Source of the DNA: Bacteroidota bacterium
GTDB lineage: Bacteria > Bacteroidota > Ignavibacteria > UBA10030
Reading direction: 5' to 3'
Length of the DNA stretch: 64,000 bases
Assembly: GCA_049644265.1 (NCBI GenBank)
Contig: JBARRO010000139.1
Location: forward strand, 5,462-69,461
This document shows positions 12,970 through 49,014 of the stretch, one piece after another. Below the pieces are notes generated by a model, which made no database searches, was not told where the DNA came from, and was given only the letters and a program-made list of their open reading frames with translations. How positions within the stretch are numbered: the stretch's first letter is position 1; each line of letters starts with the position of its first letter. The position numbers were made by a program, and so were the translations under genes.

Positions 12970-12984
12970 GATGTCTTTGAGAGT

Positions 12985-19189: not shown

Positions 19190-22069
19190 TTAGGGTGTTG
19201 AGTCCCGACCCTTATCGCTGACGTTCCCTTCATCTTTCAATGCATGTAGAATCGCATCGTGAATTCTGGGGCGAGCGCGTGCTATTCTGCCGAAGTTGCG
19301 ACTCGGATAAACACGATTCGTGAGGAGGACAATAATCACGTTCTTTTCCGGGTCCGCGACGACAGAAGTTCCTGTGAATCCCGTATGAAGAAACGTCTTC
19401 ATCGACGTGAGCGTTCCGGAGAACGATCGCCCGGAAGTCTTCGTATCCCATCCAATTGCCCTGCTGTCCTTTTCCGACTGACGCTCGATGAACCTGGAAA
19501 TAGTCTCTTTGCTGATGTAGCGCTTTCCTCCGTAGGTGCCGCCGTTGAGAAGCATTTGCATGAAGATCGCAAGGTCCGAGGTTGTCGAAAACAGACCCGC
19601 ATGGCCCGACACTCCTCCGAGCGTCGCCGCATTCTCGTCATGCACGCGGCCACGCACAGCCACTCCCGTGTGGCGCCAATACGTATCAACCTCCGTCGGG
19701 GCGATTCGGTCGATGAGGCGCTGCGGAGGATTGTACGTCGTGCTCCTCATCCCGAGCGGCTTGAAGAACAAAGAGTCCACGTACTTGTCCAGTCCGACGC
19801 CGGTGATTCTTTCTATCACCTTTCCTGTCGTAATTAATCCGAGGTCACTATACAAGGTCGAATCACCTGTTTTGTAGATCAGTCCTGTGGCAAAGACCGA
19901 GTCGACAACGCACTGGGAATCCTGACAGAAATCGTAGAATCGCCTCCATGCCGGCAGTCCGCTGTTGTGAACCATCAGGTTGTAGAGCGTGATGTTCTCT
20001 TTTCCGTTTTGTCCAAACCGCGGGAGATACTGCACAACCCGGTCTTCCAGTCTCAACTTCCCTTCGTCTACAAGCCTCATTACTGCGCTTGTTGTTGCGA
20101 TGACTTTTGTGACTGACGCGAGGTCGTAGATGGTGTTGACGTCAACACGCTTTGAATAGAGCCCGTACTCGTAGCCGCCGAATGCTTTGTTGTAGACTAT
20201 GACCCCATTCCTCGCGGCGAGGAGGACACCGCCCGGGAAGGCCGAATCTTGTATCGATGATTCTACGACATCGTCAACCTTTTGAAGTTCGGCTCTGTCG
20301 AATCCAACTTCCTCCGGCGCTCCAGTTCTCATCGTTGTTTTTGGATACTCAATGCCGTCGCCGAAATTGTAGACTCCCGGTACGGTGATCGGCAGTTTCC
20401 CCACCGCAGGAGATTCTGCAAACAGCACTTCCGCGGCGGCCTGCTCCATGACGTCCGCATCGGAGTACGTGCACACATACGCGTCGACCTGCGGAAACTC
20501 CATGACTACGTATGGATTTCCGAACGAGACAGCAACGACAGGTTTTTTCAAAGCGAGGAGATTCTGCATCAACGCCGCCAGCTTGGGATCGACGAACCCG
20601 GTCATTTCACCGGAGCGGGTGTAGAGATGAAGCTGACAAAGCAGGATATCGGCGGTCTTTGCTTTCACGAGGAGCGAATCGTACTCCATCCGGTTGCTTC
20701 GGGGATCAATCGTCGCACGGCCAACCCTCCCACGCCGGGCCTGAAGAAGCCGATGGAACCCGTCGCCGGCAGAGGGATCCTCCGTGTCGGAAATAATGAC
20801 GTCGAGGATTTTCGTCGTGTCCGTCTTCGGAAGAGGCAGAATGCCGCTCTTGTTTCCCAGGACCGTCACCGCTTTGCGCGCGATTTCCGTCGCGAGCAAC
20901 TGATGCGGCCGCGTGCCAACCTGCTCGTAGATTTTGGCAACATCAACGTATCGATTAGCATCCAAACCCATTCGCTGTTTGATCTTCAGCAGTTTCCGGA
21001 CCGAACCGTTGATCCGCTCTTCAGTTATTTCTCCGTTCTTCACTGCAGCGACGATGGCATCGACGGCGAGGTCGGGGTCTACAGGCATGAGAACCAGGTC
21101 GACTCCGGCCTTGATAGCGAGGACCGCCGCCTCGCCCGGCGCATATTTTTTCGCCACACCGGCCATTTGCATGGCATCAGTGACCACAAGTCCGTCGAAC
21201 TTCAATTCGTCTTTGAGGAGCTTCGTCGTGATGTTCGGCGAGACCGTTGCTGGAACGCCTGGAACTGAATCGTAGACGGGAACTGCGAGATGACCGATCA
21301 TCACGGAGAGAGCTCCCGCGTTGAATGACTGGACGTATGGGGGAAGGTCACGTTTCTCCAACACGTCTTTGCCAAAGTTCAGAATGGAAAGACCAAGATG
21401 AGTGTCAACGTCCGTGTCCCCGTGTCCGGGGAAATGCTTCACGGTGGCGATCATGCCGCCGTCCTGGGTCCCTTTCACGAATGCGGCTCCCATTTCGGAA
21501 ACCAGTTTCACCTCATCGCCAAACGCCCGAGTGTTGATGACGGGATTCTTCGGGTTGACGTTCACGTCGATATCGGGTGCGTAGTTCTGATGAACTCCGA
21601 GCGCTCGTCCCTCGATTGCCGTGACCTTGCCGACTTCGTAGGCATAGCCAGGATTTCTCGTCGCTCCGATCGCCATCGCCCGCGGAAACGTCGTCGAGCC
21701 ATGGACGCGCATCCCGACACCGTATTCAAAATCTCCTGCAATGAGCAGCGGAACATCGGCGTGTTCCTGGAGCTTGTTGATTTGCACGGCGTATTCGTAC
21801 ACATCTCCGATAGAGAAGATGAATCCTCCGAGTTTCCTCTCCTGAGTGAGGCGTTCAAGCTCTTGCCACCGGTCCGAGTCCTTCGGATAGTATTTCCCGA
21901 GCGTCCAGACAAAAACCAGCTGGGAGACTTTTTGTTCAAGCGGAAGACGCTGAAGGGTTGATTCAACCCAGTCGGGACCCACTGAGACGGTGGTTTGTGG
22001 GGGTATGGATGTGGAACAGCCGAGTCCAAGGAGGATAACGAAAACGAAAATTGTGAGTGATTTGGTCAT
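19190..22069 (-). CDS. nagZ: Bifunctional beta-N-acetylhexosaminidase (GH3, NagZ-like) fused to a beta-lactamase-fold serine hydrolase; lipoprotein
   Basis: 959 aa. Lipoprotein signal with LGC lipobox. N-terminal GH3 motifs KHFPGHG and Asp nucleophile region GLVVTDAMQMAGV. C-terminal domain carries an SxxK motif (SVTK) and beta-lactamase-fold features. Confidence 0.85.
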   Translation of the reverse strand: MTKSLTIFVFVILLGLGCSTSIPPQTTVSVGPDWVESTLQRLPLEQKVSQLVFVWTLGKYYPKDSDRWQELERLTQERKLGGFIFSIGDVYEYAVQINKLQEHADVPLLIAGDFEYGVGMRVHGSTTFPRAMAIGATRNPGYAYEVGKVTAIEGRALGVHQNYAPDIDVNVNPKNPVINTRAFGDEVKLVSEMGAAFVKGTQDGGMIATVKHFPGHGDTDVDTHLGLSILNFGKDVLEKRDLPPYVQSFNAGALSVMIGHLAVPVYDSVPGVPATVSPNITTKLLKDELKFDGLVVTDAMQMAGVAKKYAPGEAAVLAIKAGVDLVLMPVDPDLAVDAIVAAVKNGEITEERINGSVRKLLKIKQRMGLDANRYVDVAKIYEQVGTRPHQLLATEIARKAVTVLGNKSGILPLPKTDTTKILDVIISDTEDPSAGDGFHRLLQARRGRVGRATIDPRSNRMEYDSLLVKAKTADILLCQLHLYTRSGEMTGFVDPKLAALMQNLLALKKPVVAVSFGNPYVVMEFPQVDAYVCTYSDADVMEQAAAEVLFAESPAVGKLPITVPGVYNFGDGIEYPKTTMRTGAPEEVGFDRAELQKVDDVVESSIQDSAFPGGVLLAARNGVIVYNKAFGGYEYGLYSKRVDVNTIYDLASVTKVIATTSAVMRLVDEGKLRLEDRVVQYLPRFGQNGKENITLYNLMVHNSGLPAWRRFYDFCQDSQCVVDSVFATGLIYKTGDSTLYSDLGLITTGKVIERITGVGLDKYVDSLFFKPLGMRSTTYNPPQRLIDRIAPTEVDTYWRHTGVAVRGRVHDENAATLGGVSGHAGLFSTTSDLAIFMQMLLNGGTYGGKRYISKETISRFIERQSEKDSRAIGWDTKTSGRSFSGTLTSMKTFLHTGFTGTSVVADPEKNVIIVLLTNRVYPSRNFGRIARARPRIHDAILHALKDEGNVSDKGRDSTP

Positions 22070-22177
22070 GAGATGTGGAGGGCGATAAGTTGAGAGATCA
22101 GTGTTCAGTTTACCCGCCGGGTGACTTATCTGGAATTTCTGTCGTCTGCAATCTGTAATCTGTCGTCTGCACTCTGT

Positions 22178-23458
22178 TCACGCTTTCTTTTTTCCGAATT
22201 CCGGGTCGATTTTCACGAGCGCTGCCACGAGGAAGCCGGGGATCGTGGAAGCCATGACCCAGAGGAAGAAATTCTTGTAGCCGATGGCATCCTGGATTGC
22301 TCCGCTGAACATTCCGGGGAGCATCATCCCGAGGGCCATGAATCCCGTGCAGATGGCATAGTGCGCGGTTTTATAGCGCCCTTCGGAAACCAGGATCATG
22401 AACATCATGTATGCAGTAAATCCGAATCCGTATCCGAATTGCTCCACGGCTACGGCCGCGTTAATAAACAACAGGTTCGTCGGCTGCACATGAGAAAGGT
22501 AGACGAACATTGCATCGGGAAGATGTATGGACAGGACCATGATCCAGAGCCAGAACTTGAGCCCCTTCTTCGCGATCACAAAGCCGCCGAGCAATCCGCC
22601 GAGCGTCAGAGCAATGATGCCGACCGTGCCGTAGACAATTCCGACTTCGCTTGTGGTGAGGCCGAGCCCGCCTTTGTCCCGTGCGTCGAGGAGAAACGGC
22701 GATACGAGTTTGACCAGCTGAGCTTCGGCAAACCGATACAGGAGAAGAAAGGCAAGAATAGTAATGATCTCCTTGCGCTTGAAGAACACAACGAACACTT
22801 CGAGGAATTTTGTGACAACTCCTGAGGATCCTTCACCAGGGTTTGAAACGTCGGATACGGGATACGGGAGGAGGAATTTGTGATAGATGAAGAACAGCAG
22901 GAAGAGGCCGGCGAGCAATCCGAAGGCAATCGACCAGGCAACCGTAATGCTTCCGCTGGTCGTTTCGATCGATCCCGCGAGAACCACGAGGGCGCCCTGA
23001 GCCGTGATCATCGCTATTCGATAGAAAGTGCTGCGTACTCCGACGAACGCCGCCTGCTGATGCTCCGGAAGAGCAAGCATGTAGAAGCCATCTGCAGCGA
23101 TATCGTGCGTCGCAGAGCTGAACGCCATGAGCCAGAATACCGCAAGCGTGTATTGGAAGAACGACGGCAGTGGAATCGTCAGCGCGACCCCAGCGAGTCC
23201 TGCTCCGATGAGTAGCTGCATCGTAATGATCCAGAATCGCTTGGTCTTGAGAATGTCGACCACAGGGCTCCACAGCGGCTTGATGACCCACGGGAGGTAG
23301 AGCCAGCTTGTATACAGGGCGATGTCGGTGTTCGAGATCCCCATACGTTTGTACATGATGACGGAAACCGTCATCACAACGACGTACGGAAGGCCCTCGG
23401 CAAAGTAAAGAGTCGGGACCCAAGCCCAGGGATTGCGGGATGCGGGAGTAGAGGCCAT
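22178..23458 (-). CDS. ampG: Muropeptide MFS transporter AmpG family
   Basis: 426 aa, 12 TM. N-terminus WVPTLYFAEGLPYVVV and overall AmpG-like sequence. Confidence 0.85.
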   Translation of the reverse strand: MASTPASRNPWAWVPTLYFAEGLPYVVVMTVSVIMYKRMGISNTDIALYTSWLYLPWVIKPLWSPVVDILKTKRFWIITMQLLIGAGLAGVALTIPLPSFFQYTLAVFWLMAFSSATHDIAADGFYMLALPEHQQAAFVGVRSTFYRIAMITAQGALVVLAGSIETTSGSITVAWSIAFGLLAGLFLLFFIYHKFLLPYPVSDVSNPGEGSSGVVTKFLEVFVVFFKRKEIITILAFLLLYRFAEAQLVKLVSPFLLDARDKGGLGLTTSEVGIVYGTVGIIALTLGGLLGGFVIAKKGLKFWLWIMVLSIHLPDAMFVYLSHVQPTNLLFINAAVAVEQFGYGFGFTAYMMFMILVSEGRYKTAHYAICTGFMALGMMLPGMFSGAIQDAIGYKNFFLWVMASTIPGFLVAALVKIDPEFGKKKA

Positions 23459-23773
23459 GAGAGTGATAAGGTTTAATAAGGAGTATTCAGTTCGTTGGAT
23501 ATTGGGTGTTGGTTATTGAGTGTTGGACATTGAAAAAGATTCAATTTCCAATAACGAATGTTTGGGAGTTGGGCATTGAAAAAAGACTCAACATCCAATA
23601 GCATCGTCCGATGTCCAATTACCAAGGAGTAAGACCTTGAGAGTTGATCATTGGGAGTTGGAAATTGAAAGCTGAAAGATTCAAATTCCAATACCCAACA
23701 ATCAACATCCAACGTTCAAGGGAACACACCTTGGACATTGGAAATTGGCTATTGGAGATTGGACATTGAATCT
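23459..23773. repeat. Cluster of TTGGA(C/A)ATTGA...TCAAT(G/T)TCCAA hairpin repeats
   Basis: At least five imperfect inverted-repeat units (for example ttggaaattgaa-agctgaaaga-ttcaaattccaa) fill the whole 315-bp gap between ampG and the spoIID-like gene. Confidence 0.7.
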
Positions 23774-25102
23774 TCAATACAGTTTCTGAAGTTCCGCCCC
23801 ACGAAAATAGTGTTTCACAATTTCTTCCGCGCCGAATCCTTTGGCAGCCATCACGGCAGCGCCGATCTGGCAAAGTCCGACTCCGTGTCCCCAACCACCG
23901 CCGCGGAGCGTGAATTGTGTTGGAGTTCCCTGCGAGTCCTTTTCCGTCTCCACAATGAACGCGGAGCTGTACAGATGACTCTTCGAAAGCCACCGACGGA
24001 TTTCCAGTTCTTTTCCTACAACAATCGTCTTTTTGGTCCCCTCAATCCTGAGCCGGAAGATTCTGCCCGACGGACCACGCTGCAACGGGACCAGGTTCAG
24101 GATGGTTCCAAAGTCAATGCCCGACTTCGACTTGATAAGTTCTTCGAGCGCTTCGCGATTGTAGACCACCGTCCAACGGAAGAAATCCGTGGTTTCCTGG
24201 TCAAACGACGGCAGGACCTGTTTCAGAATCTTTCCGTCCGCGGTGTTGCAATACGCGTCGGGGGAAGAATGAAGCCACTCAGCTGCGCGGGATTCAGTGA
24301 CAACGGGAGCGTAGTGATTTGCTGAATCGGAAACGGAGCTGAGATACGGGATGGACAACTCTTCCCAACAGCTTTCAAACAGCTCCGACAGCCCTCCGCA
24401 AGACTTGGAGAATCGCGCATCGCAAACCTGATTATCGTGAATCAGAAACGTGCCCCGGGTTGCTTCCACGGCCTCGGCGGCGGCCTTCGAAATGATTTTC
24501 GTGAGGCCTTGGTAGCGCTGGCAATGGTCGTCCGCACAAACGTCGAACAGGGCATGATCCTCGCGGTCATACCAGCGAACAATTTCCTCTGCAGTCTGGC
24601 GCGATCTCTGCGAAGGGACGCCGACGTTCTTCTTTTCCCGTTCAAGCATCGCGACGAGCCAGCTTCGGGAGGTGATCGCGTGGGCCTTGAGCAAGTCAAT
24701 CGGAGCTTCCGCGCTCATTTCCGATGAGATGACACTCTTGAGGTATTCTTCAACACCGACCTCGTTGATGGCTGTAATGGTGCCATCCTCCCTGGCGAGC
24801 AGGCGAAGACTGCCGGGAAATGTCTGCGTCTCCCTCCGCTCCCAGTGAAATCCGACTCCAATCGTCACGTTCGCAAGCTTGAACGGCAGACCCTCGAGCG
24901 GTTTGCAGAGGAATTCCTTCTGCCGGATAATTTCTTTCCCGGTTTTGTTCTTAAGAACCACTGCACCATGTTCGACGCTCGCGGTAAATTCCCCCTGGAC
25001 TCCAAACACATTCCCTACAACAAATTTCCCGTCAAACGACCCTTCGACGCGAGGCTCGTGCTCGAACATTCCGACGGTGATAAGGGGCTCTTTGGAAACC
25101 AT
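23774..25102 (-). CDS. SpoIID/LytB domain protein
   Basis: 442 aa. C-terminal SpoIID signature GGGWGHGVGLCQIGA. Confidence 0.8.
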   Translation of the reverse strand: MVSKEPLITVGMFEHEPRVEGSFDGKFVVGNVFGVQGEFTASVEHGAVVLKNKTGKEIIRQKEFLCKPLEGLPFKLANVTIGVGFHWERRETQTFPGSLRLLAREDGTITAINEVGVEEYLKSVISSEMSAEAPIDLLKAHAITSRSWLVAMLEREKKNVGVPSQRSRQTAEEIVRWYDREDHALFDVCADDHCQRYQGLTKIISKAAAEAVEATRGTFLIHDNQVCDARFSKSCGGLSELFESCWEELSIPYLSSVSDSANHYAPVVTESRAAEWLHSSPDAYCNTADGKILKQVLPSFDQETTDFFRWTVVYNREALEELIKSKSGIDFGTILNLVPLQRGPSGRIFRLRIEGTKKTIVVGKELEIRRWLSKSHLYSSAFIVETEKDSQGTPTQFTLRGGGWGHGVGLCQIGAAVMAAKGFGAEEIVKHYFRGAELQKLY

Positions 25103-25103
25103 T

Positions 25104-25172
25104 GGGAGTTTCTAGTTTCTAGTTTCTGGTTTCTGGTTTAGAGTTTAGAGTTTAGAGTTTCTAGTTTCTGCG
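25104..25172. repeat. GAGTTTC/TAGTTTC heptamer array
   Basis: Sequence gagtttctagtttctagtttctggtttctggtttagagtttagagtttagagtttctagtttctg. Confidence 0.7.
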
Positions 25173-25203
25173 CCGAGCCGAGGATCGCAGAGTTGCTGAA
25201 TGC

Positions 25204-26175
25204 TCATTCAGCCCTTGCGATCTTCTGCATATCGTCGTCCTCGATGGTTACCTCACGAAAGATCGCTTCGACCATCTTTGCGTCCAGACTTCGAAAATCC
25301 TTTTCGCGGGGAGTGACGATGAGTCCGCCGATGTCGACAGCAGCCGGACTGATCAGGACCTGCTTATCACCCTTCTTGAAGTACACTTCGGGTCGGTGTT
25401 TTCGACGCGGGAATACAATGAGCCGCCACAAACGGCCGGTGCAGGAACAAAGGACATTCATCATTGGCTCTTCAACCGTTCCAAAAGCGTGTTTCCACAC
25501 CTTCAGAAGATTCAAGAACGAGTTTTCGAGTTCGGATTGGTCCTTCGACTCCAGCACAACGACTTGTCGGCCATAGTTTTGGAGCAAGAACTTCGAAACA
25601 GATCCCTTGTTTTTCAACAGAACCCGTCGCTTCGGATCCAGCGCTTCTTTTTCCACCGGTATTGCTCCGGAAGGACTCGCCTGAAAATGCATATGGTCTG
25701 GGGCGGAGGCCCCACATCGAGGCCCGTTGTAGAAAACTGTGAAGCCCGGACTCAGGTCTTTCGCCAGGTTCAAAAACGTGTGAACGAACGGCTCGAGCGA
25801 CTGCGGTATATGCGCGAGATTGGAAATCGTATAGTGTTGCCTGAAGATTGGAGCCGGATTGCAGAGGACGAGAAAATCCTCCCCGTACAATATCCCCTGC
25901 TGCTCTTTGGGCAGGTTTTCGACACACAGAAAGCAGGGCCGCGCTTCGATCGACTTCGCATCTACCTTTGCGCCGGTGCTGACAATCCTGCCAGGATTCC
26001 ATTGGAGCCACGCCGAGAATCCCGTGCACTGAATTTCACGGATCTGGATCTTTTCCAAGGAAGCGTAGCCCGCGGCGAGCGTTTTCCACGATCGCTTCTG
26101 TTGCTCGAGCAACTGGAGCGATAGCGAACTCAGACTCGCACCACCACGACGAAATGTTTTGAAGAGCTTATCCAC
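25204..26175 (-). CDS. HIT-superfamily GalT-like protein (HxHxQ motif), DUF4922-like
   Basis: 323 aa, GTG start. Contains HMHFQ (GalT/Ap4A-phosphorylase-branch HIT motif) and a CFLC pair. Family assignment is from memory. Confidence 0.5.
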   Translation of the reverse strand: MDKLFKTFRRGGASLSSLSLQLLEQQKRSWKTLAAGYASLEKIQIREIQCTGFSAWLQWNPGRIVSTGAKVDAKSIEARPCFLCVENLPKEQQGILYGEDFLVLCNPAPIFRQHYTISNLAHIPQSLEPFVHTFLNLAKDLSPGFTVFYNGPRCGASAPDHMHFQASPSGAIPVEKEALDPKRRVLLKNKGSVSKFLLQNYGRQVVVLESKDQSELENSFLNLLKVWKHAFGTVEEPMMNVLCSCTGRLWRLIVFPRRKHRPEVYFKKGDKQVLISPAAVDIGGLIVTPREKDFRSLDAKMVEAIFREVTIEDDDMQKIARAE

Positions 26176-26291
26176 GAAGAAATACCACGAAGGTCACTAA
26201 GGACACAAAGGAAAGAAATAATATTGAGAGAGAATCGTTGGACCGATTTCGAATAAAACCCTTAGTGTTCTTCGTGTCCTTCGTGGTTCAC
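26172..26291. repeat. CACGAAGG / CCTTCGTG word repeats arranged as an inverted pair
   Basis: ccacgaaggtcactaaggacacaaagg...aatattgag at the left, and cccttagtgttcttcgtgtccttcgtgg at the right. Confidence 0.65.
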
Positions 26292-26803
26292 TTTCCTTTC
26301 TTGACAGACTGAACCGGAACATACCCAATATAGTGGTTGACCTTCGTGGAGCCCATGGTGAAGGGCTCTTCTTCTGCGACCTGGAATCCCATACCCTTAT
26401 ACCAATCCACCGCCGAGCGGTTTTCCACCATCACTCCCAGCCAGATTCTATCCAACCCATGTGAGACAGCTTCGTCGGCAGCCATCACCATGAGTGTTCG
26501 CCCGATGCCCTTGCTTTGAAACTCCGGAAGTATATAAAGGGAGGAAACATAATGCCGTTCTTCTTCTTTGTTGAACTTTGTACGTACAAATCCGGCAACG
26601 GTGCCTTCGGCTTCTGCCACAAATCCGTTCACCGTCGGGTCCGCGAAGAGTTTCTTCATCGACGCTTCGTCGTAGGTTTTTTCGAGATAAGATGTGAGGT
26701 CGGATTCCGGAATGAACGAATACGCATCGAGCCATGTCTTCCGGAGAATTTCGCGGATGGGGGACAGGTCTCGTTCCTGCCATCGGCGGTACGTGATGGT
26801 CAT
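26288..26803 (-). CDS. GNAT family N-acetyltransferase
   Basis: 171 aa. Acetyl-CoA-binding motif QSKGIGRTLM and a GNAT fold. Confidence 0.8.
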   Translation of the reverse strand: MTITYRRWQERDLSPIREILRKTWLDAYSFIPESDLTSYLEKTYDEASMKKLFADPTVNGFVAEAEGTVAGFVRTKFNKEEERHYVSSLYILPEFQSKGIGRTLMVMAADEAVSHGLDRIWLGVMVENRSAVDWYKGMGFQVAEEEPFTMGSTKVNHYIGYVPVQSVKKGK

Positions 26804-28278
26804 CCCTTCTTCCCCGACCGGTTCATCTGCTGGCGGGCAAGCATCTCAATCGTGCGGATCCTGTCCTTGTAGGAATCGTTGCGGTTGGCTTTTTCCACGG
26901 AGAGCGCGGCGTCGGTGTTACCCTCCCAGCGCCTGCAAAGATAGATGGGCTCGAAAATTCTGCCGATCTGATATTCGCGTGACAGCCGGAGAGCAACTGC
27001 ATAATCTTCGCCGTAGCTGACGTTGGGAAGTTTCACTTCTCTCAGCAATGCAGTGTTAAAGGCCCGCGGGGCGCCAAGGCCATTGATCCGAAGCGCATTG
27101 TTGCGGCCGTTACCGGGAGTCCATTCTTTGTGGTCGATCAGTCCGGGAGGTATCTCTTCAAGCTTCATGTTCACAAGTTTGTACGAACCAATGACCATGG
27201 CGTAGTGACCACCGCGGAAGAGATCGACAACTTTTTGGAGCGTGGTGTCTCCGCTGTAGATATCGTCTGAATCAAGCTGGACTGCATAGCGTCCACAGTA
27301 TTCCGACTGAACGGCTTCATTCCAGCACCCTCCGATGCCGAGGTCCTGGCGGGAGGGGATAAGATGTTTCACCAACCGGTTTTGACCGGACAGGTCTGAT
27401 AGTATCCGCGTTGTTCCGTCCGTCGAATGGTTGTCGACCACGATAATGTTGAAAGGAAAATCTGTCTTCTGCTTCATCACGCTGTTCACCGCATCGCCGA
27501 TGGTCAGCTCCCGGTTGCGAACCGGAATGATCACACTCGCTTCAGTCACGAACGCCGCTGTAGACTTCGGGACTTTCTTGAATTTTGGCTTCAGATACAC
27601 TTCAACGTTCTTCAGGTGCCGGGTGGCGACATCCTCCAATTCTATCTGCACCTGCCGGTTCTTCGGGTCGACGTAATCGAAGAGTTTCTCTCCAGTCTTC
27701 CGGAGATCCGACTCAACAGCCGTGCAGAGATATTCCTGGATGTGAAAGAGGGAATGGTCGATCGAAACTTTCAATCGCAAATCGTAGAGCCCGGCCCGTT
27801 CAACGATGCTGATTGCTCCGTAGCGCTTCAGGGCTTTTCTGATCGCTGCCGTTCCAAAGAGCATCAAGGGGCCAAAATCGAAGCCATCGCGGATGCTGCC
27901 GAACTGATAGTCATTTACGGGATGCTCCGACCGAATACCGTTCTTCACGTCAAAATAATCCGCATAGACCATTCCCACACCCGGAAGCTCTGCCAAGGCG
28001 ACCAATCGCTCAAGTGCGGACTGACCCAGCTGAATTTCCTGTGAACGAGTCGCAAAGAGAACGAAGTCAGTCTTTATTTTTGCGATCAGTTCATTGACCG
28101 TCTTTCCCGAGGTGAACGCGTCCGAGCGGACTCCTTCGCAGTTTGGGTAGGAGCCGGCAAAATCCCCGCCATGCACGACGAAGATCTTCTGGACGAGAGA
28201 CGAAGTGAAAAATTGTTTGAGGGTATTCTGAAAATCCAGATTGGGATTGTAAGGCAGAACAACAGAGATCGAACTCAT
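26800..28278 (-). CDS. Family-2 glycosyltransferase (two GT2-like modules)
   Basis: ORF 26800-28299. Probable ATG at 28278 (MSSISVVLPYNPN). A second GT2 core is SVIIPVRNRE...VVDNHSTDGT. Confidence 0.75.
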   Translation of the reverse strand: MSSISVVLPYNPNLDFQNTLKQFFTSSLVQKIFVVHGGDFAGSYPNCEGVRSDAFTSGKTVNELIAKIKTDFVLFATRSQEIQLGQSALERLVALAELPGVGMVYADYFDVKNGIRSEHPVNDYQFGSIRDGFDFGPLMLFGTAAIRKALKRYGAISIVERAGLYDLRLKVSIDHSLFHIQEYLCTAVESDLRKTGEKLFDYVDPKNRQVQIELEDVATRHLKNVEVYLKPKFKKVPKSTAAFVTEASVIIPVRNRELTIGDAVNSVMKQKTDFPFNIIVVDNHSTDGTTRILSDLSGQNRLVKHLIPSRQDLGIGGCWNEAVQSEYCGRYAVQLDSDDIYSGDTTLQKVVDLFRGGHYAMVIGSYKLVNMKLEEIPPGLIDHKEWTPGNGRNNALRINGLGAPRAFNTALLREVKLPNVSYGEDYAVALRLSREYQIGRIFEPIYLCRRWEGNTDAALSVEKANRNDSYKDRIRTIEMLARQQMNRSGKKG

Positions 28279-28329
28279 GCGATTGAGGCTTTCATTCAAC
28301 AGTTGGATAAAACTACGAGACGGCGAATG

Positions 28330-29292
28330 CTATTCTTTGGAGTGCTTTTGTGAGACAGCCAGAGCTATCAAGGCTGCTCCGTGAACCGGATTTGCCTCAG
28401 GTTGCCTGAGAAGAACGCGGGGAAGACGTTTCCTGATCAGGCCTTTGACTTTCCTGGAATACAGATTCTCCCGGGTGATCAGGCTGCCGGCAAAGGAAAC
28501 TGCGGTCTTTCCACTCTGCCTTCCAGTCGCGTGCAAGCGAATGAGGGCAATCTGGATGACATCTACAAGGTCTTCTGCCGCTTTGGTCAAAATGCCGCCT
28601 GCAATCCTATCCCCTTTTTCCGCCGCTTCGACCACCCCCGGAACGACGGACGCAATATCAAATCCCTCTTTATACAGAGCGGTGATAATCGATTCCTGCG
28701 TGCCGAATCCTAATCGTTGAGTGAAGATTCTGGCGAGCGTCGTCTTCTTGATGCGCCCATCCAGCATTCTGGCTACTGCCCGAAACGCCTCCGTTCCAAT
28801 CCAGTAACCGCTCCCTTCATCCCCGATTAATCTCCCCCACCCCCCTGCCCTGTGAATCCTTCCCTTCTCATCCTTACCGAATACGATCGACCCTGTTCCC
28901 GCAATGACGATCACACCGGGTGCACCGGAAAACGCACCTTCAAGGGCTATGCGCGCGTCGCTTTCAACGGCGAATCGAGGGATTCCCATGCGTTTCGCAG
29001 TCGCCATGCGTTTGAGAGCCACAGCCATCCGTTGTTGGTCGACGGGACGACCAGCGCCCGTCAATCCGGCCACCACCGCCGCAACCGCAGAGGTCCCGCA
29101 TCCGGCAGTGTCGCAGCATGTCTCAACAAGGTCGAGAATTGTTTTCGCCGCCTGCTCAACACCGATGACCTGAAAGTTCGACGGACCACCCTGTGCTTTT
29201 GCGCGAACGGTTCCCTCGAGACTGCACAACTCCGCCGCAGTCTTCGTCCCCCCACCATCGAGACCGATAACAAACGATTTTTTTTCGTTCAT
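28330..29292 (-). CDS. BadF/BadG/BcrA/BcrD-type sugar kinase (GlcNAc/MurNAc kinase-like)
   Basis: 320 aa. N-terminal IGLDGGGTKT, DEGSGYWIG and an ASKHA fold. Confidence 0.75.
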   Translation of the reverse strand: MNEKKSFVIGLDGGGTKTAAELCSLEGTVRAKAQGGPSNFQVIGVEQAAKTILDLVETCCDTAGCGTSAVAAVVAGLTGAGRPVDQQRMAVALKRMATAKRMGIPRFAVESDARIALEGAFSGAPGVIVIAGTGSIVFGKDEKGRIHRAGGWGRLIGDEGSGYWIGTEAFRAVARMLDGRIKKTTLARIFTQRLGFGTQESIITALYKEGFDIASVVPGVVEAAEKGDRIAGGILTKAAEDLVDVIQIALIRLHATGRQSGKTAVSFAGSLITRENLYSRKVKGLIRKRLPRVLLRQPEANPVHGAALIALAVSQKHSKE

Positions 29293-29561: not shown

Positions 29562-30041
29562 ATGAAAAAGGCGTGTGCTGTTTTCATAGGTGCCCTGCTT
29601 CTCATGGGAAGTACAGAAGCGTTTCAGGCGAAGAAGAAAGCGCCATCATTCTCCTTGAAGACGTCACAAGGAACGACAGTCGATTTGAAGAAGCTGAAGG
29701 GAAAACTCGTTCTCGTAAATTTCTGGGCGACGTGGTGCGGCCCTTGCCGGGCCGAGATTCCGGCCTTTGTCGATCTCTACGAACAATACAAGGATAAAGG
29801 TCTGGAGATTGTGGGGATTTCGGTTGACGATAACGGCTGGTCGGAGGTTAAACCGTTTGTCGAAAAGTACAAAATCAATTACCCGGTTGTGATCGATAAC
29901 GGATCGGCCGTGCGCGCGTACGGTAACTTCAGCGCCATTCCAGTGACCTTCGTCATCGACAAAGAAGGTAATCTCGTCGACCGTCACATCGGCCTCATGA
30001 AAAGAGAAATGCTGGAGAGTCTCATAAAATCCAATTTGTGA
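29562..30041 (+). CDS. tlpA: TlpA/ResA-like periplasmic thiol-disulfide oxidoreductase
   Basis: RBS gagga upstream. Signal peptide MKKACAVFIGALLLMGSTEA and WCGPC thioredoxin motif. Confidence 0.85.
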   Translation: MKKACAVFIGALLLMGSTEAFQAKKKAPSFSLKTSQGTTVDLKKLKGKLVLVNFWATWCGPCRAEIPAFVDLYEQYKDKGLEIVGISVDDNGWSEVKPFVEKYKINYPVVIDNGSAVRAYGNFSAIPVTFVIDKEGNLVDRHIGLMKREMLESLIKSNL

Positions 30042-30097
30042 GACTCACCCCAAAAACGCCCACGCATAGTTGTCTCTCCTCTTGACTGACCCACACT

Positions 30098-31879
30098 ATG
30101 TCTAGACTTCTCGCAACCTGTCTGGCCTTCGCACTCGTCCTGCCGGCCCGCGTGTGCTATGCACAGAGCTTAGCCAGTGCGAAACAATTGGGCGTTGTCA
30201 CCTTCCTTTCCACCGACAAGATCCGGGCGGGAGAAACAACGCGGATCGCCGTTCAGCTGACGATCAACGAAGGCTGGCACGTCAACTCGCATCGTCCCAC
30301 ATTCGATTACCTGATCCGGACCGACCTGACTTTTAATCAGAACGCAGGGTATCTTGTCGCAGATATCCAGTATCCAGCGGGAAAGACCGAGAAGCTCGCG
30401 TTTGCTGACGAACCTCTCGATGTCTACCAGGGAACTGTCACCGTTGTCGCATCACTCCGGTTTTCCGACCTGATCGCTGTTGGCCCCGACACCATCCGGG
30501 GAGCCGTCCAGGTCCAGGCCTGCAACGACCAGGTGTGCCTCGCACCGTCCGCAATCCCGATTGTAATCCCCGTTGAAGTTGTTTCCGCCAGCGAATCCGT
30601 CCATGCGAACCATCCCGAGATTTTCAGTGCTGCCGGAACTGGTGAAGCGAAGCAATCATCCGGCGGGGGGAATGAACTCGCGGCCATGTTTGAAGAGCGG
30701 GGATCGTTCGTAACGTTTCTTGCAATTTTCCTGATCGGACTCGCCCTCAACCTCACGCCGTGCGTGTATCCCATGCTGTCTGTGACCGTTTCCCTGTTCG
30801 GTACACAAACGGAAGCGCGCATGCTGCGCGTGTTTCTCAAAGCGGTCGTCTACGTGCTCGGCATTGCAACGATGTACAGCGTGCTCGGAGTAACAGCAGC
30901 ACTTGGCGGTGGACTATTCGGCAGCTGGCTTCAGAGTCCATGGGTGCTCGGCGGAATCGCCGTTCTGCTTTTTGGCCTTGCTCTCAGCTCCTTCGGTCTC
31001 TATCAGATTCAGATGCCTTATTGGCTCACGAGCCGCCTCGGCGGAACGACAGGGACCGGGGTTATCGGTTTGTATCTCTCGGGACTCGTCGTCGGCGTCT
31101 TTGCAGCTCCGTGTGTCGGTCCGCCCGTCATTGCCCTGCTCACGCTTGTCGGCACAAAGGGAGATCCGTTCTTCGGCTTCTGGTCGTTCTTTACCCTCTC
31201 CCTCGGGCTCGGCTTTCCCTATCTGATCCTCGGGACATTTTCGGGGCTTCTCAAGAAAATTCCCCGTTCGGGCGCATGGCTTGTGTGGGTTGAGAGGATC
31301 TTTGGCGTTATTCTTACGGGAGCCGCGTTATTCTATCTCGCTCTCGCTGTTGCACCTTCGTACGCATCGTATGTCATTCCGCTCATCCTTATTGTCGGCG
31401 GCATCTATCTTGGATTCGTTGACCGGTCCGGCAAGGACAAGAAAGTGCTTCAGCGTATCCAGTGGCTCTTCGGCGTTGCCTGCGTGGTCGTCGGAGTTAT
31501 TTTTGCAAACGGACTCCGCAAACCGGGAATATCCTGGGAGTCATACTCCGATGAAAAACTTATGGCCGCGAAGGCACAGCAAACGCCGGTGGTGATGGAT
31601 TTCTATGCCGACTGGTGCATTCCTTGTCTGGAGCTTGACCGGAGCACGTTCACGGATCCTTCCGTCGTCAGTGCCACGAAGAATTTTCGCCGGCTCAAGG
31701 TCGACCTGACCCACTTTGATTCTGCGGACGCCGAGGCATTGCGAAAGAAGTTCGGTATTTCCGGAGTCCCGACGGTGATATTTCTGAATGTCGGCGGCGA
31801 GGAAGTGACCTCATCGCGCATCATTGGATACGTTACTCCGGAGGTGTTTGTGGAGAAGGTGGGGGGAGCAGGTAAGTAG
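30098..31879 (+). CDS. dsbD: Thiol:disulfide interchange protein DsbD
   Basis: 593 aa. N-terminal periplasmic domain, central TM domain with CVYPML, and C-terminal thioredoxin WCIPC. Confidence 0.85.
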   Translation: MSRLLATCLAFALVLPARVCYAQSLASAKQLGVVTFLSTDKIRAGETTRIAVQLTINEGWHVNSHRPTFDYLIRTDLTFNQNAGYLVADIQYPAGKTEKLAFADEPLDVYQGTVTVVASLRFSDLIAVGPDTIRGAVQVQACNDQVCLAPSAIPIVIPVEVVSASESVHANHPEIFSAAGTGEAKQSSGGGNELAAMFEERGSFVTFLAIFLIGLALNLTPCVYPMLSVTVSLFGTQTEARMLRVFLKAVVYVLGIATMYSVLGVTAALGGGLFGSWLQSPWVLGGIAVLLFGLALSSFGLYQIQMPYWLTSRLGGTTGTGVIGLYLSGLVVGVFAAPCVGPPVIALLTLVGTKGDPFFGFWSFFTLSLGLGFPYLILGTFSGLLKKIPRSGAWLVWVERIFGVILTGAALFYLALAVAPSYASYVIPLILIVGGIYLGFVDRSGKDKKVLQRIQWLFGVACVVVGVIFANGLRKPGISWESYSDEKLMAAKAQQTPVVMDFYADWCIPCLELDRSTFTDPSVVSATKNFRRLKVDLTHFDSADAEALRKKFGISGVPTVIFLNVGGEEVTSSRIIGYVTPEVFVEKVGGAGK

Positions 31880-31965
31880 CGGGGTGGGAGAGTCTGTGAG
31901 TCTATGAGTAGATGAGAAGAAGTGGTTTCTGGTTTGAGGTTTCTTGTTTCAGATTGCCGACTTTG
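31880..31965. repeat. GAGTCTATGAGTAGATGAG word array followed by a GGTTTCT array
   Basis: gggtgggagagtctgtgagtctatgagtagatgagaagaagtggtttctggtttgaggtttcttgtttcag. Confidence 0.6.
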
Positions 31966-32035
31966 GTCTCTTCAATTCTCCTCAATCGCCAGGTGCTCGC
32001 AGAAAACTGACCACTGATAGCTGACAGCTCAATCC

Positions 32036-33616
32036 ATGTTTAAGAATCTGAAACTCTCCACAAGAGTCTTTCTCATCCTGACACCATTTCTCATCGTGGC
32101 GTTTGGTTCTTCGGTGTATGTGAATTATCGTTTCCAGGAGCAGCAGACGCTGGAGCAGGCAGGGAACGCCGCCAATGCCGAAGCGGTCATCATCAAGCGT
32201 TCGCTCGTTCACATGATGGTGAAGAACCTGATCGTCGACGACAAGTATCTCGCCCAGATCAACGAACCGGGCGGAGATATCGAAAACCTTCAGGTTCTGT
32301 TTCATGCGGACAGTCTGCATCTGTTGGAGGATTACGCCACCCCGCAACGCATGGCCCGGCTCCGCGAGCGACAGGCATCGCTCTTCAACTTGCGCCCGGC
32401 TCAGTATGAGCAGGCATTTTCAACGGGGCGGCCGGTCTGGATCATGGCGTGCGACATCACGAAGCATCCCATCGAACTCCCCAAGCACGACGACTATCCC
32501 ATTGAATCGTTCTCGTCGGGAATTCCGCTGAAGTTCTGGACATGCGGGAAGCTGAAGGTCATCCTCCCGTTCCGTGCGGAGGGACGATGCCAGACCTGCC
32601 ACGATGTTCCGGAGGGATACGTCCTGGGCGCAGCATCGATGGACGTCCCCTTTGTCTCAACGTTCAGTGCCATCCGCGCCAACGCTGTACGGTCAGCAGG
32701 AATTTTTCTGGTCGTCACCCTGGTGACCATCGGAGTGGGTGCGTTCTTCTTCAGGAGGCTGGTGGGAAAGCCGATTGGACGTCTGGTCAAAGCGACCGAG
32801 ATGATCGGCGGCGGCGACCTGAACGTCCGGGTCAGCGAAGGGTTTGACAATGACGAACTCGGAAAGCTCGCCGTGTCGTTCCAGCATATGCAGGAGCGGT
32901 TACGTCAGGCCCAGGCGGAGCTCGTCAAGAAAGAGCGCCTGTCCACCCTCGGCCAGATGGCAAGCGGCATCATCCACGATTTTCGCAACCCGATTTCCAG
33001 CGCCCTCGCTGCCATCCAGTTCCTCGAACGCCACAAGGATGTGAGCGACGATCGCCGGCATGAAATGCTCGAGCTCGTCCGCAGCTCCGTCGATCGCATG
33101 CTCCGGATGACGCAGGAACTTCTCGACTTTTCGCGGGGGGAAGTGCGGCTCGAGCTTCGTGAGGAACTCGTCGGGGACCTTCTCGCCGAAATCACAAAAG
33201 ACGTGAAGTCGAATCTTGAGAAACGGGGTATTACTTTTGCGGTCCGGCAGGAGTTTGAAGGAAAGATGTTCTTTGACAGGGATCGCCTGCTCAGGGCGCT
33301 TATTAATATCATCAATAACGCGGAAGACGCCATGCCGAAAGGGGGCTCGATTGACCTGGAGGTCGTTTCCGAAAATGGGACGCTCGTGTTCAGGATTCGA
33401 GACACAGCGGGAGGAATCCCCGAGAGAATCCGCGACAAGGTGTTTGAGCCGTTCTTTACCTCCGGAAAGGCGAAAGGTACGGGATTGGGGTTGGCAATTA
33501 CGAAAAGGATTGTTGAACAACACGGCGGCACGATCCACTTCGAGTGTGAGGACGGCAAAGGGACCACATTCTTTATTAAGATCCCGATTCGGCAGGAGCT
33601 TGCAAAAACGGCATAA
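32036..33616 (+). CDS. Sensor histidine kinase with a periplasmic domain carrying a c-type haem motif (CxxCH), HAMP, HisKA and HATPase_c
   Basis: 526 aa. TM1, then an approximately 190-aa periplasmic domain containing CQTCH at nt 32587-32604, TM2, HAMP, H-box GIIHDFRNP, and the G1/G2 boxes. No response regulator gene in the window. Confidence 0.8.
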   Translation: MFKNLKLSTRVFLILTPFLIVAFGSSVYVNYRFQEQQTLEQAGNAANAEAVIIKRSLVHMMVKNLIVDDKYLAQINEPGGDIENLQVLFHADSLHLLEDYATPQRMARLRERQASLFNLRPAQYEQAFSTGRPVWIMACDITKHPIELPKHDDYPIESFSSGIPLKFWTCGKLKVILPFRAEGRCQTCHDVPEGYVLGAASMDVPFVSTFSAIRANAVRSAGIFLVVTLVTIGVGAFFFRRLVGKPIGRLVKATEMIGGGDLNVRVSEGFDNDELGKLAVSFQHMQERLRQAQAELVKKERLSTLGQMASGIIHDFRNPISSALAAIQFLERHKDVSDDRRHEMLELVRSSVDRMLRMTQELLDFSRGEVRLELREELVGDLLAEITKDVKSNLEKRGITFAVRQEFEGKMFFDRDRLLRALINIINNAEDAMPKGGSIDLEVVSENGTLVFRIRDTAGGIPERIRDKVFEPFFTSGKAKGTGLGLAITKRIVEQHGGTIHFECEDGKGTTFFIKIPIRQELAKTA

Positions 33617-33639
33617 GATCGGACTGACCACGAAGTTCA

Positions 33640-33712
33640 CAAAGGGCACGAAGGGGAATACGTCATAATCCCTTGGAAATTGGATGTTCGACATTGATTA
33701 TTGAGTGTTGAT
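33640..33712. repeat. One CACGAAG word element plus one TTGGAAATTGGA...GACATTGA element
   Basis: ccacgaagttcacaaagggcacgaaggggaatac and cttggaaattggatgttcgacattgattattgagtgttg. These are members of the families seen at 26172 and 23459. Confidence 0.5.
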
Positions 33713-33857
33713 CTCTTTAACGGAGAAAAGGGAACGGAACCATGTAGGAACGATGGAACGAGAAACGGCGTGTAGGGGTTTAATGATGATGTCCAACAAA
33801 AGAAATTACTTGTGGCAATTCACTAATCACAATATCTATACATCAGGAGGATACCGT

Positions 33858-34322
33858 ATGAAGAAACTCATTCTTGTGTTTCTCGCGTGCGTCGTGGCAT
33901 CGTCGATGCTCTTCGCACAAGAGAAAATGGAGAAGAAAGAGATGAAGAAGGAAATGTCCGGTTCGCATGTCATGACCGGATGGCTCGTCGACCAGATGTG
34001 CGGAAAGAAAATGGGGAACGGCGACGCCGAGAAATCCAATGCCAAAGCAGCAAAACACACCAAGGATTGTGCAGTGGAAGAATCCTGTGCGGAATCCGGC
34101 TATGGCCTGGTCAACAACGGCAAGTGGTTTAAGTTCGATGAGAAGGGCGACAAATTGGCCGCCGAGTGGCTGAGCAAGACCGACCTGAAGAAGAACCTGA
34201 TGGTGAACGTGAAGGGAGCGATGGACGGAGACAATATCAAGGTTGAATCCATCACCACCGCGAGCGAAAAGAAAATGGATATGAAGGACGGAAAGATGAT
34301 GGAGAAGAAGGCGAAGAGCTGA
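33858..34322 (+). CDS. Small secreted Lys/Met-rich protein with four Cys
   Basis: RBS aggagga. Signal peptide MKKLILVFLACVVASSMLFA. No family recognised. Confidence 0.6.
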   Translation: MKKLILVFLACVVASSMLFAQEKMEKKEMKKEMSGSHVMTGWLVDQMCGKKMGNGDAEKSNAKAAKHTKDCAVEESCAESGYGLVNNGKWFKFDEKGDKLAAEWLSKTDLKKNLMVNVKGAMDGDNIKVESITTASEKKMDMKDGKMMEKKAKS

Positions 34323-34361
34323 AGGGAGTTATCAGCAGTCAGCGTTCAGTTGTCAGGAGAG

Positions 34362-34396
34362 CCGCCGGTGTGAGAACATCGGCGGCTTTCTTTTTC
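34362..34396 (+). terminator. Rho-independent terminator
   Basis: Stem gccgccggtg-tgagaaca-tcggcggc followed by TTTCTTTTT. Confidence 0.75.
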
Positions 34397-34549
34397 CACG
34401 AAGTACTATGAGCTACCACGAAGGACACTAAGAACACGAAGAGAATATTGAGTATGAATCATGAATCCCGGCGGCTTTCTTTTTCCACGAAGCACTATGA
34501 ACTACCGCGAAGGACACGAAGAGAATATTGAGTGTGTGCCTTGAATCCC
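34381..34549. repeat. Approximately 85-bp tandem direct duplication
   Basis: Copy 1 is 34381-34468 and copy 2 is 34470-34549. They share cggcggctttctttttccacgaag.actatga.ctacc.cgaaggacac...gaagagaatattgagt and include the 3' arm of the terminator and CACGAAGG words. Confidence 0.8.
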
Positions 34550-34620
34550 TGAAATCACTCAACGACTCACGGACTCATAGACTGTAGACTCATCTACTCC
34601 ACTACTCACTTCGTTCCCGC
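34540..34620. repeat. CTCATCTACTC-type word array (reverse orientation of the GAGTAGATGAG family)
   Basis: cactcaacgactcacggactcatagactgtagactcatctactccactactcacttc. Confidence 0.6.
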
Positions 34621-34646: not shown

Positions 34647-34868
34647 ATGTCAGACAAGATACTCCTCATTGCATTTGGAACACTGTCCACGATCGGGCTG
34701 ATCATTGGGGCGTTGGGCATCTACTTCGCTATGAAGAGCGCCAAGAAAAAGGACGGCGAAATCAGCATGGCGCTCTGGTCGATGGCAGCCCTCGCAGGAT
34801 TCACCGTCGCAGGCATGTGCTGGGCGTACTTTCTTATTCCCATCCTTATGAACCACCTCTTCAACTGA
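34647..34868 (+). CDS. Small two-TM membrane protein
   Basis: 73 aa with two hydrophobic helices. Hypothetical. Confidence 0.5.
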   Translation: MSDKILLIAFGTLSTIGLIIGALGIYFAMKSAKKKDGEISMALWSMAALAGFTVAGMCWAYFLIPILMNHLFN

Positions 34869-48985: not shown

Positions 48986-49014
48986 GATGTTCATGGGGAG
49001 GTAGCGGTTAGCAG

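Follow-up and report, generated by a model that had tools for sequence, protein, structure and literature searches.

Four adjacent genes at positions 29562-34322 of this Bacteroidota sequence raise two questions: whether the sensor histidine kinase among them carries a haem in its periplasmic domain, and whether its position beside genes for thiol:disulfide exchange reflects a dedicated redox-sensing module. The block lies on the + strand of a 64-kb stretch of 64,000 nucleotides (nt), the whole of which is hereafter called the window. As the initial annotation had proposed, we found four open reading frames (ORFs) at this place, all on the + strand and coding for a TlpA-like protein, DsbD, the kinase and a small secreted protein. 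Sequence comparison and structure prediction indicate that the kinase is probably a divergent, previously unlabelled member of the sCache_haem family, i.e., that it would sense through a periplasmic Cache domain with one covalently bound c-type haem and signal by the mechanism proposed below.

A single, invariant CxxCH motif in the sensor domain

The features of the kinase on which this reading depends are the following.
32036..33616, + strand: sensor histidine kinase of 526 amino acids (aa), consisting of a first transmembrane helix (TM1), the predicted sCache_haem sensor, a second transmembrane helix (TM2), HAMP, HisKA and HATPase_c
32123..32689, + strand: periplasmic sensor domain, residues ~30-218, with a single Cache-like fold and a predicted c-type haem
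32588..32602, + strand: CQTCH haem-c attachment motif, residues 185-189 (C185 and C188, with H189 as the predicted proximal ligand)
32216..32218, + strand: Met61, a candidate for the distal axial ligand of the haem, in the long N-terminal helix continuous with TM1, present in 20/20 and 81/84 aligned sequences

The translation contains two hydrophobic segments (~residues 11-29 and 221-239) flanking residues 30-218, and exactly one CxxCH, the CQTCH, falls in the ~190-residue stretch between them, which confirms the earlier description of a single periplasmic motif between two transmembrane helices. Among 50 candidate proteins of the window, CxxCH was found only in the kinase (one) and in the octahaem cytochrome described below (eight). 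A word-indexed protein search with the kinase returned a single relative, and a few more were found with a profile. An exhaustive hidden Markov model (HMM) search of 1.84 billion representatives gave 95 proteins at E <= 1e-3, and every one of them that covers the site has the CxxCH. In the 20-sequence alignment of the closest family, the invariant positions were A46, V58, M61, L94, P178, C185, C188, H189 and V191. When the comparison was widened to 84 related sensor domains from kinases, chemoreceptors and c-di-GMP enzymes, C185, C188, H189 and P178 were conserved in 84/84 and M61 in 81/84. Judged by these comparisons, the CxxCH of the kinase is not a chance occurrence, because the motif is rare among the window proteins and yet present in all 84 related sensor domains.

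The same sensor was joined to different outputs among the 67 longer homologues, namely methyl-accepting chemotaxis proteins (MCPs; 31), histidine kinases (27) and GGDEF/EAL proteins. It thus behaves, at the level of domain composition, as a mobile module reused with MCP, kinase and GGDEF/EAL outputs.

One 374-aa protein from an ENA metagenome (P0117) combines a short-form sensor and HAMP with PF25601 and a Fis-type HTH_8 domain and has no kinase core. Either a one-component regulator in the membrane or an artefact of assembly could explain it.

Predicted fold and family of the sensor domain

The link to curated families was transitive: of the 67 longer homologues, 14 matched PF21563 (Mcp40H-20_sensor; best E 6e-8) and 4 matched PF11845 (Tll0287-like) weakly. 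By sequence, the window sensor matched two PDB entries, 3B42 (GSU0935) at E 0.01-0.016 and 3B47 (GSU0582) at E 0.06. The family-profile matches to both consisted of two colinear segments, the MM-containing N-terminal helix and the haem-binding segment, and the local alignment of the latter pairs LKVILPFRAEGRCQTCHD of the window with LSLVLPFPNEQRCQSCHD of 3B42. A control profile made from the periplasmic part only, with the transmembrane helices removed, still recovered distant MCP and histidine kinase relatives at E 1e-4 to 1e-8 (values scaled to the whole library), with matches spanning the N-terminal helix and the haem segment.

An AlphaFold2 (AF2) model of the sensor region, built from the 20-sequence alignment, reached a predicted local distance difference test (pLDDT) score of 85.5. 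It has helices at residues 7-64 (TM1, unbroken into the periplasm), 183-187 (the CxxCH) and 207-243 (becoming TM2), and strands at 83-89, 134-139, 170-180 and 196-205; the CxxCH site is thus modelled on a short helix between the last two strands. When this model was compared to the PDB with Foldseek, 3B42 ranked first (E 3.4e-4, probability 1.00) and 3B47 fourth, and extracellular sCache domains of WalK took places 3, 5 and 6.

A 2026 preprint describes sCache_haem (DUF3365/Tll0287/GSU0582 type) in Gracilicutes and gives its anatomy as a Cache fold in which a CXXCH-bearing short helix is inserted between strands (PMC12889525, Deshpande et al. 2026 preprint). The kinase domain is likewise extracytoplasmic and placed between two transmembrane helices, has a strictly conserved CXXCH and, in the predicted structure, a Cache-like fold. 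Very probably, then, the domain is a PAS-like (Cache) sensor of the GSU0582/GSU0935/Tll0287 type whose CxxCH holds a haem covalently. The covalent-haem hypothesis of the initial annotation is hence supported by an invariant motif and by GSU0935 and GSU0582 as the best structural matches of the predicted fold. The outcome named beforehand as fatal to it, a non-haem fold with an unconserved CxxCH, did not materialize, the motif being invariant in the homologues and the predicted fold matching haem-c sensors. The organism furthermore encodes a c-type cytochrome, the octahaem protein of the window, which we count in favor of a haem.

GSU0935 and GSU0582 (3B42, 3B47) are the best PDB matches of the window sensor both by sequence and by predicted fold. 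They share with it the placement of the sensor between two transmembrane helices followed by HAMP, a single CxxCH that follows (V/I)xPF...E/x-R/K-C and sits on a short helix ahead of the last strands, and an MM pair on the N-terminal helix, of which Met60 is the distal ligand in the Geobacter proteins. Unlike these MCPs, the window protein has a histidine kinase output, and its sensor is longer (~190 aa versus ~130 aa), with extra helices at 103-130 and a 30-residue Cys-bounded loop. The invariant Met of the window family is the second of the MM pair, and outside the two motifs the similarity is marginal (E 0.003-0.06, below the Pfam cut-off).

The signalling-fused Cluster 2 of sCache_haem, as set out in the preprint, has the same extracytoplasmic single Cache domain, the same CXXCH short helix and a transmembrane/HAMP link to a kinase, MCP or GGDEF/EAL output (PMC12889525). 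An Ignavibacteria/Bacteroidota subfamily with a Cys-pair loop was not found described in the part of that work consulted (PMC12889525). Tll0287 differs in that it is a stand-alone protein with Cys/His ligation, whereas the window sensor is fused to a kinase. Haem-free sCache kinases of the WalK, CitA, DcuS and PhoQ type have the same order of TM1, sCache, TM2, (HAMP), HisKA and HATPase, and the extracellular domain of WalK was the next-best structural match after GSU0935 and GSU0582. Unlike the window kinase, however, these domains have no CxxCH and bind small ligands or proteins without a cofactor.

Proposed haem ligation and signalling mechanism

The haem of GSU0935 has His144 and Met60 as its ligands (PMC8396549). 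Its ferrous form is low-spin with Met bound, and oxidation, nitric oxide (NO) or carbon monoxide (CO) releases the Met; this switch in spin and coordination was proposed to be the signal (PMC8396549). Redox-linked release of the Met is described for GSU0582 as well (PMC8396549). In the preprint, sCache_haem domains are likewise proposed to sense NO or redox state via displacement of a labile axial ligand, and the one signalling-fused domain reported there as tested, from P. azotoformans, bound NO tightly and formed no stable oxy complex (PMC12889525). The initial annotation had suggested redox or oxygen sensing; the redox part agrees with what is proposed for these relatives, and the oxygen part does not, the literature pointing to NO or redox instead (PMC8396549, PMC12889525).

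A weak ungapped colinear profile alignment places M60-M61 of the window on Met60-Met61 of GSU0935 and GSU0582 (Geobacter residue numbering anchored on His144 as chain position 110). By analogy with these proteins, we infer His189/Met61 ligation. We thus propose that, after Sec export, C185 and C188 would be kept reduced and thioether-linked to haem by the cytochrome c maturation system, with His189 as the proximal ligand, as suggested by the invariant motif and the homology to solved haem-c sensors. Met61, on the helix continuous with TM1, would be the labile sixth ligand in the ferrous state, in line with its conservation in 81/84 sequences and with the way it aligns to Met60/61 of GSU0935. 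When the iron is oxidized or binds NO or CO, Met61 would be displaced and, by analogy, the TM1-proximal helix would shift relative to TM2. Through HAMP and the DHp/CA core, an order of domains that the protein does show, this shift would alter autophosphorylation at His314 and phosphotransfer to a presumed regulator encoded elsewhere.

Several points weigh against this reading. The direct match of the window sensor to PF21563 reached only 18.3 bits (E 0.003; gathering cut-off 27), at the CxxCH region, and a direct match to PF11845 was not found even at E 10. The Foldseek TM-scores (template-modelling scores) to 3B42 were modest, 0.27 when normalized to the query and 0.49 when normalized to the target, with a high root-mean-square deviation, partly because the model includes both transmembrane helices and the crystal structures are domain-swapped dimers. 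The haem on the kinase is a prediction from sequence and model. The Met register is uncertain by one, the invariant residue of the window family being the second Met (M61) and the crystallographic ligand the first (Met60), and the assignment may be off or wrong. Finally, sequence alone cannot decide between NO, redox potential, CO and another signal.

If correct, the assignment supplies the sensor annotation that curated models do not give for this kinase, together with a cofactor and a mechanism specific enough to be tested. The haem-c Cache sensors would then reach into Ignavibacteria-type Bacteroidota, in a form that is divergent and longer and has a Cys-bounded loop peculiar to its subfamily. 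To a specialist, finding a haem-c Cache kinase in the genome of an anaerobe-type Bacteroidota would come as no surprise.

An orphan kinase with an NtrC-family core

In Pfam, HAMP (1.6e-14), HisKA (6.1e-13) and HATPase_c (5.6e-27) all scored above the cut-off, and the core boxes could be read from the translation: the H-box with H314 (HDFRNP) and the N (NAEDA), G1 (DTAGG), F (FEPFF) and G2 (GTGLGL) boxes. By its sequence, the protein therefore has what defines a class I HisKA-type kinase, i.e., HAMP, a DHp domain with a phospho-acceptor His and the boxes of the CA domain. The NCBIfam models nearest to the core were those of the NtrC-family kinases AtoS and ZraS; therefore, an NtrC-type (sigma-54-type) response regulator encoded elsewhere is the most likely partner.

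To place the kinase among its relatives, GTDB species genomes were scanned with a query of 4 sequences, which gave five related loci, L001-L005. L001-L003 are Ignavibacteria-type metagenome-assembled genomes (MAGs). A receiver HMM built from CheY, PhoB, Spo0F and NtrC found no receiver domain in the six-frame ORFs of the whole window and none beside the kinase homologues in L001-L005; as a positive control, it detected the receiver in a hybrid kinase elsewhere in L003. The earlier observation that no response regulator lies nearby is thus borne out, and the kinase counts as an orphan both in the window and at the five loci of its homologues. A cognate response regulator is usually, not obligatorily, encoded next to its kinase, and since orphan kinases are common, this status is unremarkable in itself.

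Gene order around the kinase

The genes and signals of the block other than the kinase are as follows.
29562..30041, + strand: TlpA/ResA-like periplasmic thiol:disulfide oxidoreductase of 159 aa, with a signal peptide and WCGPC at residues 58-62
30098..31879, + strand: DsbD, three-domain thiol:disulfide interchange protein of 593 aa, with DsbD_N, DsbD_TM and a C-terminal thioredoxin domain
31880..32035, no strand: dsbD-kinase spacer of 156 bp, without terminator or significant structure
33617..33857, no strand: kinase-small gene spacer of 241 bp, without terminator or significant structure, with AGGAGG 7 nt before ATG 33858
33858..34322, + strand: small secreted protein of 154 aa, with a signal peptide at residues 1-21, Cys48/His67/Cys71/Cys77, SGYGL and KFD
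34355..34395, + strand: intrinsic-terminator-like hairpin with U-run 3' of the small gene; no other strong terminator lies in the block
34647..34868, + strand: 73-aa membrane protein, conserved right-hand anchor of a variable slot, found by tblastn after the kinase or the small gene in L001-L003

The initial annotation had read the four genes as one dedicated redox-sensing module. In its full form, TlpA and DsbD would set the redox state of the sensor and of the small protein, the small protein would act as co-sensor or carrier, and the output would control electron-transfer cytochromes. Consistent with this, the genes lie on the same strand with short internal spacers that lack a terminator and with a single strong terminator after the small gene. 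All four products expose functional Cys residues in the periplasm, and an additional Cys pair covaries within the kinase subfamily. Moreover, the order tlpA-dsbD-kinase is kept in five Ignavibacteria-type loci, i.e., the window, L001, L002, L003 and L012 (the contig of the closest homologue of the window kinase), with a BadF-type kinase gene on the opposite strand preceding it in L001-L003 and L012; L003 has the small gene after the kinase as well.

However, the flanking housekeeping genes (BadF-type kinase, GT2, GNAT, DUF4922, SpoIID and MFS) are syntenic in those five loci too, and because they are equally so, the adjacency of tlpA, dsbD and the kinase gene may simply be inherited. The small gene is missing from L001, which has the kinase, and from L002, where an amidohydrolase-like ORF takes its place. 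Conversely, the contigs that carry small-protein homologues (L006-L010) show tlpA-dsbD, the small gene and a gene for a 72-aa membrane protein, and no kinase; in L006-L009 and in the contig of P0100, the small gene follows dsbD directly, and 72/73-aa membrane-protein genes follow the small gene throughout L006-L010. One of these contigs comes from a close relative (80-83% nt identity, same downstream genes), in which dsbD, a spacer and the small gene follow one another, again without the kinase. There, the dsbD-type spacer, with its octamer repeats and CTGAC...GCTGACAGCTC motif, runs directly into the sequence just upstream of the small gene, and for this reason the kinase gene can be described as a clean 1.8-kb presence/absence difference corresponding to about 32031-33816 of the window. 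The kinases of L004 and L005 belong to the same Cys-pair subfamily (43-46% identity) and do not lie near dsbD, nor do the short-form sensor homologues in L011 and L013. Furthermore, the octahaem gene lies on the opposite strand, with five unrelated genes between it and the block.

Since the kinase and the small gene are each found without the other, the slot between dsbD and the 73-aa gene is variable and their occurrence independent: it holds the kinase, the Cys3His protein described below, both, or other genes. We therefore consider the dedicated module unlikely. The adjacency found in one syntenic clade, the absence of the kinase or the small gene in relatives and the homologues located elsewhere all speak for a lineage-specific, dispensable arrangement of one syntenic Ignavibacteria-like clade. 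A point that tells against this conclusion is that the four genes may be co-transcribed, with some functional coupling, because the spacers hold no terminator and the only strong one follows the small gene. The conclusion also disposes of a story that is attractive but lacks support: neither a redox module nor control over extracellular electron transfer can be argued from the gene order of this locus.

The locus L004, from a Bacteroidota MAG, shows what may be a parallel to the window's pairing of a kinase with a secreted Cys protein (8769-9851, ~11530-11945). A radical-SAM protein with a Cys-rich C-terminus precedes the kinase homologue, and an ORF for a different Cys-rich secreted protein (CCIAPSCDFC...CPC...CHEC) follows the kinase homologue almost immediately.

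TlpA and DsbD as a general reductant pathway

The TlpA-like protein matched AhpC-TSA (8.5e-34), Redoxin (2e-31) and Thioredoxin_8 in Pfam. Its best NCBIfam score was to the ResA subfamily (137.6 bits, cut-off 170), and it scored 77.7 bits against TlpA (cut-off 230). It is, by these matches, an exported thioredoxin fold with a CxxC, to which no specific client can be assigned, because the scores are below the cut-offs of both the ResA subfamily and the TlpA equivalog. DsbD matched DsbD_TM (4.3e-44), DsbD_N (1.9e-12) and Thioredoxin_7 (7.9e-14), and reached 286 bits against the NCBIfam DsbD subfamily (cut-off 330). All three of its Cys pairs are present in the translation (CNDQVC, the transmembrane motifs PCVYP/PCVGP, and CIPC), and its orthologues, ~62% identical, occupy the same position in L001-L003.

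In two of the small-protein contigs, TlpA and DsbD are fused in one 741-aa protein with Redoxin, DsbD_N, DsbD_TM and thioredoxin domains (L007 3740-5965 and L008 834-3059), which argues that the two act together.

The pair resembles the TlpA/ResA and DsbD/CcdA reductant pathways of cytochrome c maturation and Cu-centre assembly in that a periplasmic CxxC thioredoxin stands beside a membrane electron conduit and all catalytic Cys pairs are kept. Unlike in those pathways, ccm/ccs or Sco/PcuC-type client genes are not adjacent in the window, and the conserved neighbour is instead an uncharacterized Cys3His secreted protein. Among the flanking genes scanned with Pfam, a subset of the window ORFs, we found no ccsBA/resBC or ccm genes near the block; the upstream flank is concerned with peptidoglycan and sugar metabolism, and the downstream flank has an MFS transporter, an esterase, DUF885 and others. 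Haem attachment depends generically on a periplasmic reductant. As a general periplasmic reductant pathway, tlpA/dsbD could thus serve haem attachment to the kinase domain as it could to any apocytochrome, without being a dedicated partner.

A secreted Cys3His protein next to tlpA-dsbD

The start of the small gene is ATG 33858, with AGGAGG 7 nt upstream, the 205-aa ORF from 33705 being over-extended. The gene codes for a protein with 100% identity to a 154-aa NCBI entry from a 'Bacteroidota bacterium' MAG; of the 133 aa of the mature part, 27 are Lys and 12 are Met. The initial annotation had called it a secreted, Lys/Met-rich protein with four Cys. The first two attributes stand; the count of four Cys does not, since C11 is in the signal peptide and unconserved, and the mature product has three invariant Cys (C48, C71 and C77) and one His. 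In an alignment of 18 homologues, all from Bacteroidota-type metagenomic sources, C48, H67, C71 and C77 were invariant, together with G81/G83 (SGYGL) and K92-F93-D94, whereas the Lys/Met-rich tails were limited to close relatives.

Searches of Pfam, NCBIfam and the PDB gave no credible family match, as had been anticipated by the statement that the protein belongs to no known family. The conserved residues might reasonably be guessed to form a metal site of the Cys3His type, or else a redox site that TlpA/DsbD keep reduced. Across the contigs, the small gene stays with tlpA-dsbD rather than with the kinase. A regulatory role was not adopted as the default for the small protein, since it and the kinase each occur without the other. 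A Cys3His secreted protein travelling with TlpA-DsbD may deserve follow-up.

The Cys-bounded loop and other readings of the sensor

The long-form sensor domain of the window kinase differs from short-form homologues by one insertion.
32450..32545, + strand: subfamily-specific loop insertion, residues 140-169, bracketed by Cys139/Cys170 as a candidate disulfide; missing in short-form homologues

In long-form domains, this loop has 29-36 residues and connects strands 134-139 and 170-180. C139 and C170 were both present in 16 sequences and both absent (S/G) in one member of the same subfamily, and neither occurred alone in any. In the AF2 model, C139 is the last residue of strand 134-139 and C170 the first of strand 170-180, and pLDDT within the loop is low (means of 59, 78 and 66 for the 10-residue blocks over residues 141-170). 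Because they covary and stand at the base of the loop, C139 and C170 form a candidate disulfide, as sequence and model suggest.

The pair would allow a bolder reading, in which the subfamily senses dually, through the haem and through a redox-switchable C139-C170 disulfide that clamps the 30-residue loop beside the haem pocket and is set by TlpA/DsbD, the slot 3' of dsbD collecting clients of the reductase such as the kinase and the Cys3His protein. If this were true, the kinase would report the balance of periplasmic thiol-reducing power against an oxidant or NO signal. We consider this quite improbable and take the loop to be a minor variant feature.

Alternatively, the haem could be a static, structural or electron-transfer cofactor, as for stand-alone Tll0287-type proteins, and the kinase could respond to a small ligand bound in the Cache pocket or the loop. 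Stand-alone sCache_haem proteins are indeed redox proteins with stable ligation according to the preprint (PMC12889525), and the 30-residue loop is subfamily-specific and modelled at low confidence. The single signalling-fused domain reported there as tested has, however, labile ligation and binds NO (PMC12889525), the sixth ligand of the window sensor is likely to be a Met, which it would share with the GSU sensors, where Tll0287 has a Cys, and short-form relatives signal without the loop. This makes a static haem very unlikely.

Least probable of all, and hardly credible, is a haem-free sensor in which C139, C170, C185, C188 and H189 form redox disulfides or a metal site set by DsbD/TlpA: four periplasmic Cys, adjoining disulfide reductase genes and a C139/C170 pair that covaries like a disulfide would suit it, but a CxxCH with invariant His, upstream Pro and conserved Met is the signature of haem-c sensors, this signature is kept in 68/84 sequences that lack C139/C170, and the motif region matches the haem-binding segment of two covalent-haem crystal structures, which are also the best matches of the predicted fold.

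Spacers, terminator and repeats

The hairpin after the small gene was spotted by eye, having been missed by the terminator scan, and was confirmed by folding (-30.5 kcal/mol, z -5.74, 0/200 shuffles as stable); it is followed by UUUCUUUUU. A sigma-70 promoter scan was uninformative (1 match versus 3.7 expected), and the Bacteroidetes-type TAnnTTTG motif was not found in the spacers. Rfam and tRNA scans of the window gave no matches.

The dsbD-kinase spacer contains GAGTNNAT octamers at 31890-31916 and CTGACCACTGATAGCTGACAGCTC at 32007-32030. In the relative L010, which has no kinase, the same type of repeat and the CTGAC motif lie directly upstream of the small gene. Tandem octamers of the GAGTNNAT type (GAGTCTAT, GAGTAGAT, GAGTCGAT) occur in several intergenic spacers of the window, at 12981-13023, 31890-31916, 34558-34576 (- strand) and 46998-47040, with 10 matches in the window against 0.01 expected.

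The spacer after the small gene also contains a tandem duplication of ~80-90 bp (34380-34549). Its copies share 54 nt at 93% identity with 89-nt spacing and 40 nt at 85% with 80-nt spacing, and the terminator's 3' arm and T-run are part of the unit that is duplicated. Short repeats of the CACGAAG type are common to this spacer and to the kinase-small gene spacer (33627-33653).

The octahaem cytochrome and other genes of the window

The cytochrome that the initial annotation had connected to the kinase is the following.
42316-45408, - strand: octahaem c-type cytochrome of 1030 aa, with eight CxxCH and MtrC/MtrF-like, c554-like and paired-CXXCH segments

Its C-terminal domains are FlgD-Ig and Por_Secre_tail, the latter for sorting by the type IX secretion system (T9SS), and from these domains it looks like a multihaem cytochrome exported by this system. 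The gene begins 8.7 kb past the end of the kinase, and genes for an MFS transporter, an esterase, DUF885, OmdA and DUF2238 lie between it and the block. The proposed link to the kinase thus came down to distance alone, across five unrelated genes and onto the opposite strand, and we do not retain it. The only match to the cytochrome near a kinase homologue, in L005, is confined to its last 90 residues (941-1030), a part that takes in the T9SS sorting domain. The T9SS-exported octahaem cytochrome may merit its own study.

Upstream of the block, 19190-29292 (- strand) codes for a 959-aa fusion of GH3 and a beta-lactamase fold, an MFS transporter, a SpoIID-like protein, DUF4922, GNAT, GT2 and a BadF/BcrAD-type ATPase/kinase. 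It looks like a cluster for recycling or modification of cell-wall sugars and is syntenic in L002, L003, L006 and L007.

Finally, two long ORFs on the same strand, 47957-49438 (-) and 49126-50700 (-), overlap by ~310 bp. The 524-aa ORF of this pair matched no Pfam family; one of the two starts may be mis-set, or there may be a frameshift.

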